64,000 nt of DNA, from contig CAVWUW010000031.1 in NCBI GenBank assembly GCA_963758275.1, positions 183,745 to 247,744 of the forward strand, read 5' to 3'. Of the stretch, positions 49,516 to 58,786 are shown in pieces (position 1 is the stretch's first letter; each line of letters begins with the position of its first letter). The translations under genes and the position numbers were made by a program. Under the pieces are notes generated by a model that worked only from the letters and a program-made list of their open reading frames with translations, was not told where the DNA came from and searched no databases. This stretch comes from Terriglobia bacterium. Its GTDB lineage: Bacteria; Acidobacteriota; Terriglobia; Terriglobales; Acidobacteriaceae.

Positions 49516-50679
49516 ATGGACTTGAAAGCAATCCAGGCAGCCCTGCACGAGCGCAACTTTGACGCGTGGCTGTTCTACGATCATCACCATCGCGACCCCA
49601 TCGCCTATAAAGTCCTGGGCATACCAGAGAGCCTGATGGTCACGCGGCGCTGGTTTTACGTGATCCCGCGCGAAGGCGAGCCAGTGAAACTGGTGCATCG
49701 GATCGAGGCCGGGCACCTGGATTCGTTGCCCGGCAGCAAGCGGCAATACTCATCCTGGCGCGAGCTGTGGGACAACCTGCAGGCCATGCTGGTGCGCTTT
49801 CGGACGGTGGCCATGCAGTATTCGCCCAACAACGTGATCCCATACATCGGGCTGGTGGACGCGGGCACCGTGGAACTGGTGCGGAGTTTTGGCAAGGAGA
49901 TTGTCAGCTCCGGAGACCTGGTGGCGCGTTTCGAAGCCGCCTGGACCGAAGAACAGATTGCCAGCCATTTCGCCGCGCGCGATTCAATTGACGCCATCAT
50001 CCCCGAAGCTTTCAAAGAAATTGGCCAGCGAGTCCGCAGCGGAAACGTAACCGAATACGAAATCCAGCAGTGGTTTGCGCGGGCATTTGAGCGCGAAAAC
50101 ATCATTACAGAGGACCTGCCCATTGTGGCGGTGAACGCCAACAGCGGCAATCCGCATTACGAGCCCAAAGCGGAAGGCTCTGCGCAGATCAAGCCGGGCG
50201 ACTTCGTGCTGCTGGACGTCTGGGGCAAAAAGAACACGCCCGGAGCGGTTTATTACGACATTACCTGGACGGGCGTGATCGGCACGCCTAGCGACAAGCA
50301 GGTGGAAATCTTCAACGTTGTGACCGGCGCGCGCGATGCGGGAGTAAAGAAGGTCCAGGAAGCCTACACGAGCAAGCGCCGTATCGCCGGCTGGGAAGTG
50401 GACCAGGCGACGCGCGAATTCATCACAACTGCCGGCTACGGAGAATTTTTTGTGCATCGCACCGGGCACTCCATTGGCGAGCATGTGCACGGCAATGGCG
50501 CCAACATGGACAACCTGGAGACCAAAGACGAACGGGAAATCATCCCGAATACCTGTTTCTCGGTAGAACCCGGGATTTACCTGCCCGAATTTGGCGTACG
50601 CAGCGAAGTGAACGTGCTTATCCGCAACGGCAGCGCTGAAGTTACAGGTAAAATACAACGCGAACTGGTTTCGATTTAA
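49516..50679 (+). CDS. M24-family metallopeptidase (Xaa-Pro aminopeptidase-like)
   Basis: The pita-bread domain shows DFVLLDVWG, YYDITWTG, HRTGHSIGEHVHG and CFSVEPGIY. Confidence 0.85.
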   Translation: MDLKAIQAALHERNFDAWLFYDHHHRDPIAYKVLGIPESLMVTRRWFYVIPREGEPVKLVHRIEAGHLDSLPGSKRQYSSWRELWDNLQAMLVRFRTVAMQYSPNNVIPYIGLVDAGTVELVRSFGKEIVSSGDLVARFEAAWTEEQIASHFAARDSIDAIIPEAFKEIGQRVRSGNVTEYEIQQWFARAFERENIITEDLPIVAVNANSGNPHYEPKAEGSAQIKPGDFVLLDVWGKKNTPGAVYYDITWTGVIGTPSDKQVEIFNVVTGARDAGVKKVQEAYTSKRRIAGWEVDQATREFITTAGYGEFFVHRTGHSIGEHVHGNGANMDNLETKDEREIIPNTCFSVEPGIYLPEFGVRSEVNVLIRNGSAEVTGKIQRELVSI

Positions 50680-51107
50680 TGGCAGACACACAGACAAGCA
50701 CTACCTCACCCCAGACCCGCACCGCAGCGCCCACAACAGTTTCGACCATGGCAGTTGTGGCCCCGGCCATTGCATGGTTCATTCCAGGAGCGGGCCACCT
50801 GATCCAGAAGCGCTGGCTTCGCGGACTTCTGTTGCTGATCTGCGTGGTCGCGATGTTCGTATTTGGGCTTGCTATGGATGGCAAAATCTACAAATCCAAT
50901 ACCGGTGACCTGCTGGATATTCTAGGATTCATCAGTGATCTGGGCACGGGCGCGCTGTACATCCTTGGACGCATGCTGGACTGGGGCGGAACTGCCATCT
51001 ACATTGCTGCCGCCGATTACGGAACCAAGTTCATTGCGGTAGCCGGACTTTTAAACATCATCAGCGCAGTGGACGCTTACCACATTGCCATTGGGAAGAA
51101 ACCGTGA
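50679..51107 (+). CDS. Hypothetical membrane protein
   Basis: The start overlaps the preceding stop. The N-terminus is T/P-rich and is followed by three hydrophobic helices. Confidence 0.5.
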   Translation: MADTQTSTTSPQTRTAAPTTVSTMAVVAPAIAWFIPGAGHLIQKRWLRGLLLLICVVAMFVFGLAMDGKIYKSNTGDLLDILGFISDLGTGALYILGRMLDWGGTAIYIAAADYGTKFIAVAGLLNIISAVDAYHIAIGKKP

Positions 51108-51292
51108 TCCTGGCCCTTCAACTCTCTCATTTTTCAGCCGCTTTCCTGTTTGCCCTCTTTTCATCCGTGGTGTTCGGAATCTGCTTCCGCAACAACGTCA
51201 GAGAAATGGTGCGCTATGGCGCATATTGCTTTGGCGTGTTCATGATCGGAATGTGGGTGGCCGGATGGGTGATGTGGCTCATACACCATTGA
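51104..51292 (+). CDS. Small hypothetical membrane protein
   Basis: GTGA overlap with the upstream gene. Two hydrophobic helices in 62 aa. Confidence 0.4.
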   Translation: MILALQLSHFSAAFLFALFSSVVFGICFRNNVREMVRYGAYCFGVFMIGMWVAGWVMWLIHH

Positions 51293-51293
51293 G

Positions 51294-51324
51294 TAATTGG
51301 GTCAGTTGGTAAGTGGGTAATTTG
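51294..51324. repeat. Left arm of the octamer-periodic inverted repeat flanking the four-helix-bundle gene
   Basis: TAATTGGG TCAGTTGG TAAGTGGG TAATTTG. It pairs with 51688-51726 and the inner 10 bp are perfect (GGGTAATTTG/CAAATTACCC). Confidence 0.8.
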
Positions 51325-51678
51325 AGCGCCTCCCAACAGCTTCGTGACCGAACCAAGAAGTTCGCAATAAGAATTGTCCGTCTTTTTCAGGCTCCTCCAA
51401 AATCAACCGAAGCGCAGGTTCTCGGCAAGCAATTGCTTCGCTGTGGCACTTCCGTCGCTGCAAATTACCGGGCAGTGTGCCGCGCCAGATCGAAGGCAGA
51501 ATTCATAGCCAGGATCGGCGTGGTTGCGGAAGAGGCGGATGAGAGCGTGCTTTGGTTGGAGCTTCTTGAGGACACTCAAATCCTCGCCAGCAGGCAATTG
51601 CAAGACATATCCAAGGAAGCTCGCGAGTTGGGAGCCATCTTCTCAGCGTCACACAAGACGGCCAAAAACAACAGATAG
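51313..51678 (+). CDS. Four-helix-bundle protein of the 23S rRNA intervening-sequence protein family
   Basis: QLLRCGTSVAANYRAVCRARSKAEFIARIGVVAEEADESVLWLELL matches the family pattern (R..tSi.aNi.E....s..dF...l.ia.gS..E...wl.l). The start codon lies inside the left repeat arm. Confidence 0.85.
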   Translation: MGNLSASQQLRDRTKKFAIRIVRLFQAPPKSTEAQVLGKQLLRCGTSVAANYRAVCRARSKAEFIARIGVVAEEADESVLWLELLEDTQILASRQLQDISKEARELGAIFSASHKTAKNNR

Positions 51679-51687
51679 GCCGCTGGT

Positions 51688-51726
51688 CAAATTACCCAAT
51701 CACCAACTTATTCACTTACCAACTTG
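51688..51726. repeat. Right arm of the octamer-periodic inverted repeat flanking the four-helix-bundle gene
   Basis: CAAATTACCCAATCACCAACTTATTCACTTACCAACTTG. Its reverse complement reads CAAGTTGG TAAGTGAA TAAGTTGG TGATTGGG TAATTTG. Confidence 0.8.
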
Positions 51727-51727
51727 A

Positions 51728-52564
51728 TCATTTCGGCTGTGGTGATGGTTGCGGCGCTCCCGGCGGCACCTGCTTCCCATAGATGATCCGGCTCTTCACA
51801 CCAAAGCGCTTGTAATTCGTATACTTCACAATCTCTCTTACATGCACCGGCCCGGCGCTGAAGTTCAGGTCGTCATCGGCTTTGGTGTAAGTGGGAAACC
51901 AGTATTCGCCGTCGATCTGTTCGCGGTAGGTTACGAACTTGGGCGTGAGATTTTCATTTCCTTTTTTTCGAATGTCAGGAACGTTCTTGCCGCAGGTCTT
52001 CACGATCTGGAAATCACGATTGTCCACCCAGATGCGACCCTGGAAATAGCGCTTATCTTTCTGGATCTTTTTGGGAGCCAGGTCGAAAACATAAGTGTCG
52101 AGCTCATCCACGTGCTGTTGCCCGGCGTATAGAACATCGTATTCAGGCAGATCGTCGGTAGTCATGACGAAGGGCAGGCGGTTACGAAAATCGTCAAAGT
52201 CTTCTTTGGTCATCATGATCCGCTGCAGGGTATTTTGCGGGGCATAGGTTACCTGCTCAATGCGGTTTCCCTTATCGTCATAAAGAATGTCTTCTTTCTG
52301 GCGGAACTCCCCATCCATGGTGTTGCCATCAAGCGTCTGCACCACAATTTCCTGGGTGTACGTGTAATGATTACGGGCTTCCTTAAAAATGGCTTCTTTG
52401 GCCGCGAACTTCTGGATGATTTCCTGCGGAGTTATGCCCGTGGGCTGGGCCGTTTTGAGGGGACCGTTGCCTTCTTCACAGTTGGTTTCCGCTCTCAGAT
52501 GACCAGGAATGCAGGCAAAAAAGACGAGTAAACAGGCGCAAAAGAAGAGCCGCAGATAGTTCAT
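51728..52564 (-). CDS. Secreted protein, paralog A; LolA-like (outer-membrane lipoprotein-sorting protein family) fold suspected
   Basis: Signal peptide MNYLRLFFCACLLVFFACIPGHLRA. The rest aligns along its full length with the neighbouring gene. The DTYVFDLAPK...RYFQGRIWVD pattern is reminiscent of LolA-like proteins. Confidence 0.5.
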   Translation of the reverse strand: MNYLRLFFCACLLVFFACIPGHLRAETNCEEGNGPLKTAQPTGITPQEIIQKFAAKEAIFKEARNHYTYTQEIVVQTLDGNTMDGEFRQKEDILYDDKGNRIEQVTYAPQNTLQRIMMTKEDFDDFRNRLPFVMTTDDLPEYDVLYAGQQHVDELDTYVFDLAPKKIQKDKRYFQGRIWVDNRDFQIVKTCGKNVPDIRKKGNENLTPKFVTYREQIDGEYWFPTYTKADDDLNFSAGPVHVREIVKYTNYKRFGVKSRIIYGKQVPPGAPQPSPQPK

Positions 52565-52732
52565 AAGGATTTGTCTTTTGATCAGGGAATTTCCTGTGTG
52601 GTTAGATGCAACCCAGGCAGGAGAGAGTTGTTGAGAAGAGCCAAAGCCTGTGGCACTTAACAATTCAAAACAGAAATCGCCTCGCTATGGACTAATGTGA
52701 GTTGCTTAGCCAGAGGAGCTGTCAGCTCGCAA

Positions 52733-53587
52733 TCATTTTGATGCCGGCTTGGATTGCTGATCCGCCTCACCACCGTAAGTAATTTTTGTTTTCACTCCGA
52801 AGCGCTGGTAATTGGTGTACTTGATGACCTCCTTGATGTGGACGTCATTGGTGCTGAAATGCAGCACGTCATCAGCGGTGGTGTACGTGGGAAACCAGTA
52901 TTGGCCATCGATCTGTTCGCGGTAAGTGACGAACTTGGGAGTAAGGTTTTCCTGGACGTTCTTTTTCTTCTTTTTTGCCGTGGTTTCCATGCGTGTTTCG
53001 GGGACGGTCTTGCCGCAGGTTTTTACGATTTGAAGATCTTTGTTGTCCACCCAGAGGCGCCCCTGAAAATAGCGCTGGCCCTTTTCGATGGTCTTGGGCG
53101 CCAGGTCAAAGACATATGTATCAATCTCATCCACGTGCTGCTGGCCGGCATAAAGCAGGTTGTATTTGGGAAGATCTTCCGTGGTCATGACAAAGGGCAT
53201 CTGGTTACGGATGTCCTCGTAATCTTCCCGGCTCAAGGAGATTTGAGTGAGCGAGGACTGGGGAGCAAATTTTACGTTCTCTATACGATTACCTTTATCG
53301 TCATACGTAATGTCCTGCACCAACCGGAACTCGCCCGTGACAGAATTGCCTTCCAGTTGCTGAATGGTAACGTCCTGGGTAAAGGTGTAATTGTTGCGGG
53401 CCTCCTTGAAGATGGCTTCACGGGCGGCAAATTTCTGGATGATTTCCTGCGTAGTGATGCCGCTGGGCTGGTCTTGACGAAGAGGACCGGCCCCGGCTTC
53501 ACAATTGGTCTCGGCAGAAACGGCCAGCGGCGAAGCTAAAAGAAGAAGGACAAGCCCGGCGTTCAGGACGAGTCTGGACAGAGTCAT
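52733..53587 (-). CDS. Secreted protein, paralog B of 51728-52564
   Basis: Shared blocks are ETNCE.G.GPL, QEIIQKFAA.EAIFKEARN, YDDKGNRIE, PFVMTT.DLP.Y..LYAGQQHVDE.DTYVFDLAPK and ENLTPKFVTYREQIDG.YWFPTYT. It carries an extra Lys-rich insert (TAKKKKKN). Confidence 0.5.
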   Translation of the reverse strand: MTLSRLVLNAGLVLLLLASPLAVSAETNCEAGAGPLRQDQPSGITTQEIIQKFAAREAIFKEARNNYTFTQDVTIQQLEGNSVTGEFRLVQDITYDDKGNRIENVKFAPQSSLTQISLSREDYEDIRNQMPFVMTTEDLPKYNLLYAGQQHVDEIDTYVFDLAPKTIEKGQRYFQGRLWVDNKDLQIVKTCGKTVPETRMETTAKKKKKNVQENLTPKFVTYREQIDGQYWFPTYTTADDVLHFSTNDVHIKEVIKYTNYQRFGVKTKITYGGEADQQSKPASK

Positions 53588-55775: not shown

Positions 55776-55780
55776 AGCTG

Positions 55781-55814
55781 ATCGGGTGATCCGGTGAGCG
55801 GGGGATCGGGTGAT
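55781..55814. repeat. Solo octamer-periodic array immediately after the S9 peptidase stop
   Basis: (TG)ATCGGG TGATCCGG TGAGCGGG GGATCGGG TGAT. The 11-mer GATCGGGTGAT occurs twice. The 8-nt phase and GG positions match the arrays at 51294 and 57741. Confidence 0.6.
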
Positions 55815-56764: not shown

Positions 56765-57703
56765 ATGGAAAATTCCATTCGCGATACTGTGATCCTGGGT
56801 ACCGGCTGCTCCGGCCTGACTGCGGCCATCTACACCGGGCGCGCCAACCTGAAGCCGCTGGTGATCGAAGGGCATGAGCCGGGCGGGCAGCTTTCCATCA
56901 CTACGCTGGTGGAGAATTTCCCTGGATTTCCAGAGGGCATCCAGGGGCCGGAACTGATCGAGAACATGCGCAAGCAGGCCGCGCGTTTTGGCGCGGAGTA
57001 CCTGCCGGGCCATTTGGTGCGCGCTGATTTGATGAAGCGGCCGTTCACTCTGGATTTCGGCGGAGGAAAAACGATACAGGCACGCACGCTGATCATCGCC
57101 AGCGGAGCTTCGGCGCGCTGGCTTGGGCTTCCCAATGAGCACAAGCTGATCGGGCATGGGGTTTCATCCTGCGCAACGTGCGACGGATTTTTTTTCAGCG
57201 GCAAGCCGATTGCGGTGATCGGCGGCGGCGATTCGGCCATGGAAGAGGCGCTCTTTCTGACGCGATTTGCCACCAAGGTCACAGTCATTCATAGGCGTGA
57301 TCACTTCCGGGCCTCCAAGATCATGCTGGACCGGGCCCGCAAGCACGAGAAAATTGAGTTCCTCACGGACACCATTGTGGATGACGTGCTGGACGTGAAC
57401 CAAAAAGAGGTCACAGCCCTCAAGTTGAGGAATAGTAAGACAGGCAAAGCCTGGGATTTTCCCACCAGCGCCATGTTCCTGGGCATTGGACATGAGCCCA
57501 ACGCCAGGATGTTCAATGGCGTTCTTGATATGGACCAGGACGGCTATCTCAAGACACGCGACTTCGTGTTCACCAATGTCCCGGGCGTGTTTGCCTGTGG
57601 CGACGTGCAGGACCGCCGCTATCGGCAGGCTATCACGGCGGCTGGATCAGGCTGCGCCGCGGCAATGGAAGTGGAGAAGTTCTTGGAAGAACACGGAAGA
57701 TAA
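56765..57703 (+). CDS. trxB: Thioredoxin-disulfide reductase
   Basis: Shows GTGCSGLTAA, the redox-active CATCDG, GGGDSAMEEA and GVFACGDV, in 312 aa. Confidence 0.95.
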   Translation: MENSIRDTVILGTGCSGLTAAIYTGRANLKPLVIEGHEPGGQLSITTLVENFPGFPEGIQGPELIENMRKQAARFGAEYLPGHLVRADLMKRPFTLDFGGGKTIQARTLIIASGASARWLGLPNEHKLIGHGVSSCATCDGFFFSGKPIAVIGGGDSAMEEALFLTRFATKVTVIHRRDHFRASKIMLDRARKHEKIEFLTDTIVDDVLDVNQKEVTALKLRNSKTGKAWDFPTSAMFLGIGHEPNARMFNGVLDMDQDGYLKTRDFVFTNVPGVFACGDVQDRRYRQAITAAGSGCAAAMEVEKFLEEHGR

Positions 57704-57732
57704 GGTTCACCGCGGAGGCGCGGAGGCACGGA

Positions 57733-57832
57733 GAAATTTCGTAATTGGGTAATCTGGTAATTTAGTAATCGAAACAACTTGGCACATTTTTTCAAATTAC
57801 CCAATTACCAAATTGCACAATTACCAAATTTC
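57733..57832. repeat. ORF-less 100-bp imperfect palindrome built from the same TAATnnGG octamers
   Basis: The left arm is GAAATTTCG TAATTGGG TAATCTGG TAATTTAG TAATCG. The right arm is CAAATTACCCAATTACCAAATTGCACAATTACCAAATTTC. This gives a stem of about 37 bp with about 7 mismatches and a loop of about 20 nt, between trxB and the proline dehydrogenase gene. Confidence 0.8.
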
Positions 57833-57868: not shown

Positions 57869-58786
57869 GTGCTGAGGGCGGCGTTCATTTCCCTTTCTGA
57901 GAGCCGCTCCATCCGATCGGCGGCAGAAAAGACCTGGGTTGGCCAGCGGCTGTCACGGCGTTTTGTCGCCGGTACCACAGTGGAAGATGCGCTGGCGGCC
58001 ACACGGGCCATGAACCGGCTGGGGCTGGGAGTGAGCGTCGACAACCTGGGCGAGAACGTCACCAACGCCGATGAAGCGCGCCACAGCGCTCAGCTTTACC
58101 ACCAGATGCTGGACCGGATGGCCGAGCAGGGCGGCGACGCCAATGTAAGCCTGAAGCTCACACACATGGGGCTGGATGTGGATGAGGCAATGGCTTACGA
58201 AATCACGTCGAGTCTGGTGCAGCATGCCGTGCGACTCAAAAGCTTTGTGCGTGTGGACATGGAAGGCTCGCCTTACACGCAACGCACACTCGATTTTGTC
58301 CGGCGCCTGCACGCCATGCCGGAGAACGGCGGCCATGTGGGGGCGGTGATCCAGGCTTATCTTTTTCGCAGCGAAAAAGACATTGAGCGACTGATGGCAG
58401 ATCGCATCCGCGTGCGACTCTGCAAGGGTGCTTACAAAGAGCCGCCGGAGATTGCGTTTAAGGAAAAAACGGACGTGGATGCCAACTACGTGAAGCTGAT
58501 GAAGATGCTGCTCAAGAGCGGCGTCTATCACGGGATCGCCACGCATGATGAGAACATGATCGGGGCGACCATTGAGTTTGCGCAGAAAGAAAGGATCCCG
58601 GCATCAGCCTTTGAATTCCAGATGCTCTACGGCATTCGTCGCGATTTGCAAGTCAAGCTGGTGAAAGAAGGATGGCGCTGCCGGATTTATATTCCGTTCG
58701 GAACGGAATGGTATCCCTACCTGATGCGGAGACTGGCGGAGCGGCCGGCGAACGCGATTTTCATTTTGAAGAATTTGTTCCGGTGA
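57869..58786 (+). CDS. Proline dehydrogenase (monofunctional PRODH type)
   Basis: Shows GLGVSVDNLGE, VRVDMEGS, RLCKGAY.EP, ATHD and YGIRRDLQ..L...G...R.Y.PFG..WYPY..RRL.ERP.N. Confidence 0.85.
   Translation: MLRAAFISLSESRSIRSAAEKTWVGQRLSRRFVAGTTVEDALAATRAMNRLGLGVSVDNLGENVTNADEARHSAQLYHQMLDRMAEQGGDANVSLKLTHMGLDVDEAMAYEITSSLVQHAVRLKSFVRVDMEGSPYTQRTLDFVRRLHAMPENGGHVGAVIQAYLFRSEKDIERLMADRIRVRLCKGAYKEPPEIAFKEKTDVDANYVKLMKMLLKSGVYHGIATHDENMIGATIEFAQKERIPASAFEFQMLYGIRRDLQVKLVKEGWRCRIYIPFGTEWYPYLMRRLAERPANAIFILKNLFR

Follow-up and report, generated by a model that had tools for sequence, protein, structure and literature searches.

A proposed intervening-sequence-like cassette outside rRNA: a four-helix-bundle gene enclosed by inverted arrays of short tandem repeats in Candidatus Angelobacter

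The window analysed here, a 64,000-nucleotide (nt) stretch of contig CAVWUW010000031.1 from a genome of Candidatus Angelobacter (Acidobacteriota, Terriglobia), contains a small gene for a four-helix-bundle protein (PF05635/TIGR02436) that is enclosed between two arms of degenerate octamers, each arm the reverse complement of the other. Arms and gene together make up the whole 435-nt gap between the stop codons of two protein genes, sm62 and a LolA-like gene. We read this arrangement, with a probability of about 0.5, as an intervening sequence (IVS)-type cassette outside rRNA that would be co-transcribed with its host operon, with an Avd-like gene in the loop of a ~37-bp hairpin built from clade-specific arrays of 7-9-nt units; the stem of the cassette is probably a substrate of RNase III. 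Intervening sequences that bear an open reading frame (ORF) have been known in 23S rRNA genes since the early 1990s. To our knowledge, neither the origin of such elements nor the role of the S23p protein that they encode is understood.

The arms accompany the gene wherever it was surveyed in this genome. Across its 5.8 Mb (32 contigs) there are seven PF05635 loci, five intact and two broken, and all seven have inverted arms of short tandem units, with a unit that differs from locus to locus (among them TCAGCAN at pheS-pheT, GCAATTR in the spacer before a pmbA-type gene at the tldD-pmbA site, and AATTTNN after nuoD). Such a survey had been proposed in a first-pass annotation made from the letters of the window, which had described an IVS-like hairpin-plus-ORF design outside rRNA; with seven of seven paralogs armed, that design proves to be a property of the family here and not of the one locus. 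The 23S IVS of Coxiella shares the layout. Within the genus, for which 61 genomes were sampled, PF05635 is present in 60, and arms (called at a complementarity score of at least 28) flank 103 of 114 family ORFs, which comprise 100 fetched loci and those of the present genome. The corresponding figures are 3 of 400 for random positions and 8 of 297 for other ORFs of the same loci, where the eight may include overlaps with cassettes on the opposite strand. The median complementarity score is 44 within a cassette and 10 between cassettes. Among species representatives, the 80 closest relatives of the protein are 57-88% identical to it and belong mostly to Terriglobia, a few being members of other classes and phyla; 67 of the 80 are armed, and in 62 of these 67 the period is 8. 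All genomes compared here are metagenome-assembled, and counts across relatives are not independent of one another. At each of these levels, in genome, genus and subfamily, gene and arms are associated.

The behaviour of the cassette at shared sites was followed at dprA-topA, where 26 genomes carry one and where sub-clades have the units AGCTNCT, AGCCNTT, AGTACTT, GGTACTT and GGCTCTT. Distances between the cassette proteins at this site are uncorrelated with those between the adjacent TopA proteins (Spearman 0.05, 325 pairs), with p-distances of up to 0.56 for the former and up to 0.24 for the latter. In five close pairs of genomes with different cassette types, the flanks are 85-100% identical, the cassette 35-65% and the sequence beyond it 90-100%, and the breaks in identity coincide with the outer edges of the arms; one of these pairs shows an imported left flank as well. 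At a second site, flanked by a DUF948-like gene and a gene for a penicillin-binding protein, clade relatives of the cassette occur in either orientation, bounded by one and the same pair of stop codons, an outcome that recombination between inverted arms would produce. These alignments identify the block of arms plus gene as the unit of change between near-identical flanks, and both the cassette-sized breaks and the inversion in place support mobility as a unit, in line with the initial proposal of a mobile cassette.

Several rules govern the arms. The canonical subfamily carries heptamers; in the present subfamily the majority of clades have octamer arms, others having nonamers (ATTGCCAAN) or heptamers, and, as judged from the sequences, both unit and period follow the protein clade. 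For periods of 7, 8 and 9 the arms measure 36.5, 38 and 38 nt, corresponding to 5.2, 4.75 and 4.2 units, and this constancy of length with a varying number of units favours a duplex of fixed length. We had considered one repeat unit for each subunit of a pentamer, the mode being 5 units per arm, and rejected it because the number drops with period and each arm remains 36.5-38 nt long. The left array begins where the upstream gene stops: its median distance from a co-directional upstream stop is 0 nt (interquartile range -5 to +4; 90% at 15 nt or less; n = 79), and among reliable neighbours the upstream gene is co-directional with the cassette in 36 of 40.

The octamer consensus in close relatives is ATYGRGTN (A-T-T/c-G-R-G-T-N), in which positions 1-4 are A (0.93), T (0.90), T (0.81) and G (0.79), under a register rule that favours positions 2-4 and not position 1. 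The word TrAnnnGG given in the first-pass annotation is a rotation of this better consensus. That the ATTG core is kept while synonymous sites in the gene are saturated means that the arms are constrained by more than base pairing. When 13 hairpins of the clade were folded together with RNAalifold, 22 consensus pairs were obtained, four of them with compensatory double changes, which fall at variable positions of the unit. Mismatches between arms include 103 that would be G.U in the sense RNA versus 68 A.C (44 cassettes versus 22), a modest excess that is uncorrected for shared ancestry. A role of the arms as three-frame stops was rejected: it applies here and to 71-86% of period-8 arms read inward, is weak at period 7 and never holds at period 9. 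Decay of the stem at convergent sites, where no gene lies downstream, was rejected as well, the stems at such sites being equal or better (median score 52 versus 38).

The locus itself is a degenerate instance of this layout. Its arms have a Smith-Waterman score of 37, which none of 400 random genomic positions attained (mean 16.5, standard deviation 2.7, maximum 33). Positions 51293-51325 and 51687-51719 (33 nt) are 82% complementary and, because the arms are periodic, a second, register-shifted pairing is possible between 51304-51324 and 51704-51724 (86%). The pairing nearest the ORF is perfect over 12 bp (TGGGTAATTTGA / TCAAATTACCCA), where 10 bp had been counted at first. Read in the family register, the left arm is ATTGAGTA ATTGGGTC AGTTGGTA AGTGGGTA ATTTG, so that unit 1 includes the TGA of sm62 and the last triplet is the start codon of the gene. 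Lag-8 self-identity is 0.69 in the left arm and 0.57 in the right; the arrays are degenerate, as first described, and fall below the threshold of Tandem Repeats Finder. In clade relatives the homologous arms consist of clean arrays of octamers. Between the gene's TAG and the right arm lies gccgctggt, and the right arm ends 1 nt short of the convergent gene's stop codon (51728-51730). When the RNA of 51285-51735 is folded, minimum-energy and centroid structures alike are closed by the arm stem, and the energy is -164.3 kcal/mol versus -133.8 +/- 5.7 for shuffled sequences (z = -5.3); together with the compensatory changes in 4 of 22 pairs, this comparison, suggested at the outset as a check, supports the stem.

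The mechanical ORF call begins at GTG 51313 and yields the 121 aa of the first-pass annotation, whereas alignment with nine clade relatives places the start at TTG 51322. Both candidates lie inside the left arm, so that a start within the arm still holds for the shorter, 118-aa product. Across relatives the start codon is ATG in one case (L104), GTG in most, and TTG in two (L086 and L093) as well as here. The protein matches the PF05635 profile with E 2e-15 and 57.2 bits (cut-off 33.8) and TIGR02436 with E 4e-23 and 81.8 bits (cut-off 24). In place of the published family motif GxxRxxxSxxxNxxE (PMC3936711), the subfamily has R40-x-G42-x-S44-xxx-N48-xx-A51, in which R, S and N are invariant or nearly so and the final E is a nearly invariant A. 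Against clade members, the proportion of nonsynonymous differences (pN) is 0.14-0.22 and that of synonymous differences (pS) ~0.8, which is saturated; dN/dS is 0.03-0.08 in closer pairs. By this comparison of coding sequences, the 118-aa protein is under strong purifying selection.

An AlphaFold2 model is a confident up-down bundle of four helices (predicted local distance difference test score 95.5), at residues 3-22, 29-52, 58-84 and 90-116. The top Foldseek matches are BT_0352 (2rld; template modelling (TM) score 0.84) and the Xcc0516 pentamer (2gsc; TM 0.80), each entry being matched on five chains, followed by Avd chains of the reverse-transcriptase ribonucleoprotein of a diversity-generating retroelement (DGR) (8ub7 and 4dwl; TM 0.73-0.74). 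The match to 2rld is also evident in sequence (E 1e-19 with the protein, 1e-27 with the profile), and among the control genomes Bacteroides thetaiotaomicron has a family match. PADLOC gave no match for the protein, and a search of a phage collection gave a single one, 31% identical.

Table 1. Coordinates, within the window, of the cassette, its neighbours and a related hairpin
Feature	Position	Strand	Details
Left arm	51293-51324	+	four octamers GTAATTGG GTCAGTTG GTAAGTGG GTAATTTG
Four-helix-bundle gene (PF05635 / TIGR02436)	51322..51678	+	118 aa; start TTG 51322-51324, stop TAG 51676-51678
Right arm	51687-51726	+	T + CAAATTAC CCAATCAC CAACTTAT TCACTTAC CAACTTG; reverse complement of left-arm octamers
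M24 peptidase gene	49516-50679	+	Pfam PF00557, E 3e-38
DUF6677 gene	50679-51107	+	Pfam PF20382, E 1e-40
sm62, 62-aa membrane-like ORF	51104-51292	+	TGA stop 51290-51292
LolA-like lipoprotein gene, convergent	51728-52663	-	PF17131, E 9e-6, under Pfam cut-off
ORF-less hairpin, cassette octamer family	57735..57830	.	AATTTCGTAATTGGGTAATCTGGTAATTTAGTAAT, ~20-nt loop, CAAATTACCCAATTACCAAATTGCACAATTACCAAATT

The neighbours first described for the cassette, a 62-aa membrane-like ORF upstream and the end of a convergent gene downstream, were recovered, the latter as LolA-like. It has a tandem paralog at 52733-53587; the two products (311 and 284 aa) are 64% identical, and both genes converge on the cassette. 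Upstream, the M24, DUF6677 and sm62 genes are co-directional with the cassette and have stops and starts that overlap or abut, and these genes (49516-51292) are the likely source of transcription into it. A promoter scan found no sigma-70-like promoter between sm62 and the cassette, and a terminator scan found no terminator formed by the arms, which are A/T-rich and followed on the right by GATCATTTCGG, without the G+C-rich stem and T run of an intrinsic terminator. No Rfam family matches between positions 50500 and 52500.

Relatives were compared for occupancy of the site. In the genus, 22 genomes retain the M24-DUF6677-sm62 block, with the LolA-like gene as convergent neighbour in 13 of them, and a family gene is present at the sm62-LolA site in none of the 22. 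Their spacers, of ~100-260 nt, often contain other periodic hairpins: four genomes (L013, L018, L019 and L028) have CGCGAAT-type arms with a repeat period of ~10, three (G019, G021 and G012) have GCAATTR-type arms around an interior of ~110-170 nt, and others have arrays of TTTTGGT, TTAGTAC or TCAGC. In the three GCAATTR elements the arms are kept, while the interiors show no relationship to one another or to the family; that these long-loop elements are decayed genes was rejected, since their interiors match no family member. An orthologous cassette lies at the same junctions in Ca. Angelobacter SMAG_U8875, with a cassette protein 88% identical and flanking proteins 86-95% identical, so the site is filled in two species. 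The cassette is accordingly not conserved in place, as had been anticipated for a mobile element, and it was either gained once in that narrow lineage or lost from the closest relative sampled, where the spacer is rearranged. When the two orthologs are compared, the left arm is identical at 31 of 32 positions and the right arm differs at ~8 of 39 (~80% identical), mostly by C/T transitions; pairing at the locus may be eroding, or the changes may be tolerated as G.U pairs.

Some family loci elsewhere depart from the simple layout. In the present genome two genes on one contig (C8:327369-327685 and C8:324029-324326) are each broken into two fragments in different frames and keep their inverted periodic arms, of the GGCTTTT type seen at dprA-topA and of the CGGGATAN type; they are decay stages of the cassette class. 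A 287-aa open frame at C29:5857-6500 has an N-terminal PF05635-like match and is flanked by inverted GTGGAC-type arrays of 8-9 nt, of which the right one may fall within the open frame. The nuo operon of five relatives (L082, L083, L086, L113 and L114) has two cassettes, one at nuoD-nuoE with heptamer or octamer arms and one at nuoE-nuoF with nonamer ATTGCCAAN arms; the present genome has the nuoD-nuoE cassette alone, and an AGCCNTT array (C10:377058) lies near the expected place of the second. Single in-frame stops, often TGA, occur in otherwise conserved genes of L198, L223 and several other relatives, and could be recent pseudogenes, sequencing errors or recoding.

We propose the following course of events for the cassette. 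Having no promoter of its own, it would be transcribed by read-through from the M24-DUF6677-sm62 operon, and its arms would pair in the RNA to form a duplex of ~37 bp that hides the start codon. This duplex would be cut by RNase III, for which the genome has a gene, as happens in the homologous Coxiella 23S IVS; by such a cut the mRNA of the cassette would be freed and the message of the host insulated. In addition, the conservation of the ATTG core points to a partner, perhaps the protein of the cassette, that may recognise the repeats by their sequence.

The closest parallel is the 23S rRNA IVS of Leptospira and of Coxiella burnetii. That of Coxiella has an S23p ORF, a stem of 28 bp and, ahead of the start codon, tandem GACAGAT heptamers, and RNase III excises it by cutting at the first heptamer (PMC4990558). 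Both elements place an ORF of the PF05635/S23p family in the loop of a terminal-repeat stem, which at our locus is of at least 20 bp, with tandem short repeats in the arm just before the start; both are ~430 nt long and lack a promoter of their own, and the Coxiella IVS, like the cassette, has been proposed to be selfish or once mobile (PMC4990558). The differences are that the cassette lies in a spacer flanked by protein genes and not in rRNA, that it has octamers instead of heptamers, and that its gene is intact and subject to purifying selection, the ORF of Coxiella being in decay and probably not translated. Excision by RNase III has been demonstrated for the Coxiella IVS and is predicted by analogy for the cassette.

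The likeness to Avd (4dwl; reverse transcriptase-Avd-RNA complex 8ub7) is one of fold, a four-helix bundle with TM 0.73-0.74, at a sequence identity of ~12%. Avd forms a pentamer. Within 2 kb of our gene, where the neighbours are M24, DUF6677, sm62 and the two LolA-like genes, no reverse transcriptase or template/variable repeats were found, and the cassette does not qualify as a DGR. We know of no accepted function for the heptamer-type intergenic repeats of cyanobacteria, Xanthomonas and Geobacter. These include GGGAATC in Xanthomonas, with 70-75 inverted pairs, GGGGAYT in Nostoc (PMC4692102), and the heptanucleotide elements of Geobacter, with four to five units (PMC2700814). They resemble the arms in having ~4-5 units of 7 nt, often in convergent inverted pairs that are transcribed and able to form stem-loops; they differ in that no gene family was named there, G-quadruplexes or regulator sites being proposed, whereas the cassette arrays are A/T-rich octamers that bracket a specific gene.

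A further parallel comes from 23S_rRNA_IVP genes wedged in cas operons, which belong to the same family, stand as single small genes between co-directional operon genes, and were read as cas-associated with no mention of flanking repeats (PMC3936711). On plasmid pPg_04 of Pseudanabaena galeata (L228:1330-2020), a 'four helix bundle protein' gene with a 56%-identical product stands between csx2 and cas1; its flanks are periodic and inverted, with several tandem ~35-nt TCTTCC-rich copies upstream and their complement downstream. Pseudanabaena galeata is a cultured organism. Our literature search found no paper that links the gene family to flanking repeats outside rRNA.

Cassette units also occur in hairpins that enclose no gene. 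The present genome has at least eight short-loop hairpins (loops 16-62 nt) of GGTAANTN octamers, and also hairpins whose units are found beside family genes elsewhere in the genus. The pattern GTAANTNRGTAANTNRGTAA is matched 0-299 times per genome, in 57 of the 61 genomes, with a reversed-pattern control of ~0; (AGCNNNN)3AGC is matched 5-503 times per genome in all 61, and reversed-pattern controls overall give ~0-10. Octamer counts have a median of 55.5 in genomes with the cognate protein clade and 31 in those without (p = 0.02, uncorrected for ancestry); the sole genome without a PF05635 gene has 0 octamer and 31 AGC-heptamer matches. That ORF-less arrays require the cognate clade was rejected, as the association is weak and clade-free genomes reach 299 matches.

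One such hairpin of the cassette octamer family is in the window (Table 1), between ORFs at 56765-57703 and 57869-58786. Directly before it stand three units of another octamer, CGCGGAGG (57711-57733), so that two repeat families adjoin. Positions 55779-55814 of the window hold 4.5 copies of TGATCGGG, the unit that in other genomes builds the arms of a different clade within the same protein subfamily (GATCGGGT type). In one relative (G002:C24:88747-88882) there is an array of ~20 units of AGCTTCT, far above the ~5 units of an arm; AGCTTCT is the unit of one cassette type at dprA-topA and resembles the 3' end of dprA, AGCTTCTAG.

A number of points weigh against reading the locus as an IVS-type cassette that is co-transcribed and mobile. 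The stem at the locus is only 82% complementary, and the drift of the right arm from its ortholog, which the left arm does not share, suggests that selection on pairing may be relaxed here; the excess of G.U is modest and uncorrected for shared ancestry. The read-through transcript and its cleavage are predictions, and movement is deduced from comparison alone, every genome compared being metagenome-assembled. No recombinase is linked to the cassette, no target-site duplication is visible at its junctions, where the arms abut both stop codons and for that reason would leave none to be seen, and no copies of more than 90% identity were found at truly different loci; recent transposition was rejected, as the apparent matches were mis-assignments of neighbouring ORFs. 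Finally, the units are found far more often in ORF-less hairpins and are abundant in genomes without the cognate clade, which suggests that the arms may be host elements. Since the arms belong to a genus-wide and mostly ORF-less hairpin family, the locus may be either a cassette or a host hairpin that acquired a gene.

Two other explanations, each of which we consider unlikely though worth weighing, account for part of the evidence. According to the first, the hairpin acts at the level of DNA: the arms would be terminal repeats or a cruciform for a recombination or transposition activity encoded elsewhere, or for the four-helix-bundle protein itself, the cassette would be transposase-less or mobilised in trans, the ORF-less hairpins would be derivatives like MITEs (miniature transposable elements with inverted repeats), and the RNA stem would be a by-product. 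Block replacement with breaks at the arm edges, inversion between arms, the differing hairpin types at one site among relatives, the dispersed ORF-less hairpins of the cassette unit, and an ATTG core conserved far past the needs of pairing all fit this explanation. It is set against the lack of a target-site duplication and of near-identical copies at different loci, so that of the usual hallmarks of MITEs and insertion sequences just the inverted repeats are present, and it would not lead one to expect co-orientation with the upstream gene or an excess of G.U.

A candidate activity encoded elsewhere was sought in the Y1 transposases (PF01797), which in repetitive extragenic palindromic (REP) systems are known as REP-associated tyrosine transposases (RAYTs). 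REP elements, bacterial interspersed mosaic elements (BIMEs) and MITEs resemble the cassettes as dispersed intergenic hairpins with short non-coding derivatives and, for RAYT, with a gene between inverted copies of the associated repeat; the cassette arrays differ in having neither a Y1 transposase nor a target duplication, in being internally periodic, and in having a unit that varies by locus. The present genome has 13 Y1-transposase matches; of these genes eight were examined, and none of the eight has GGTAA-type octamer arrays on both sides. One such array lies ~1 kb downstream of the C27 copy in L143, and a different repeat, CACGGAGA, stands beside the same copy. A RAYT or other Y1 transposase as mobiliser was rejected on this lack of association. 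Apart from the cassettes, the genome contains CACGGAGA / ACAGAGGA octamer arrays in inverted pairs with loops of 100-140 nt (for example C2:99302, C24:178014, C15:266468 and C27 near 6645); one is just upstream of a Y1-transposase gene, and these arrays may thus be a REP/RAYT system distinct from the cassette arms.

The second explanation, which we hold to be about as improbable as the first, is that the hairpins belong to the host as REP-like mRNA stabilisers, insulators or protein-binding sites, and that the gene is a passenger in the loop or a host regulator that binds the repeats throughout the genome, with nothing selfish or mobile about it. It draws on the presence of arrays, mostly gene-free, in 61 of 61 genomes of the genus and on their persistence where the cognate protein clade is missing, on the recurrence of some periodic hairpin at the sm62-LolA site in many relatives, and on the ORF-less elements that keep their arms while their loops diverge. 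It is harder to reconcile with a gene that is almost never armless in the genus, with unit and period that follow the protein clade, with arms and gene that are replaced together, and with homologous 23S rRNA cassettes that are regarded as selfish (PMC4990558). As for the idea that an ordinary small gene happens to be flanked by an inverted repeat, the degeneracy of this instance, its 82% pairing and the lack of a Tandem Repeats Finder call would suit it, but we regard it as refuted, given a score unreached at 400 random positions, a layout common to all paralogs and ~90% of genus homologs, and the same arms in the ortholog and eight further clade relatives.

A broader proposal, which is speculative and which we rate well below the co-transcribed cassette itself, is that the four-helix-bundle proteins are sequence-specific partners of 7-9-nt tandem repeats, each clade recognising a unit of its own (in this case ATTG every 8 nt). 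On that view the hairpin with a gene would be the autonomous form, ORF-less hairpins would be its non-autonomous progeny or its RNA or DNA targets, and the whole would be a hairpin-based mobile or RNA-processing system without a conventional transposase, for which the rRNA IVS is one landing place.

The cassette, a block that related soil bacteria appear to insert, exchange and invert as one piece, connects a family of proteins whose function is unknown with the short tandem repeats of bacterial genomes, themselves unexplained. What the present analysis adds is that arm length is fixed at ~37 nt rather than the number of units, that the array starts at the upstream stop codon, that the octamer core is conserved across the whole protein subfamily, and that identity between cassette types breaks exactly at the arm edges. 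If our reading is true, the rRNA IVS would be one landing place of a widespread element that lies mainly between genes of core operons (nuo, pheST, dprA-topA, tldD-pmbA and murF-mraY), and short tandem repeats would gain a candidate protein partner. The class would then be a natural case in which a gene is expressed from a polycistronic RNA of its host and perhaps excises itself from that RNA.

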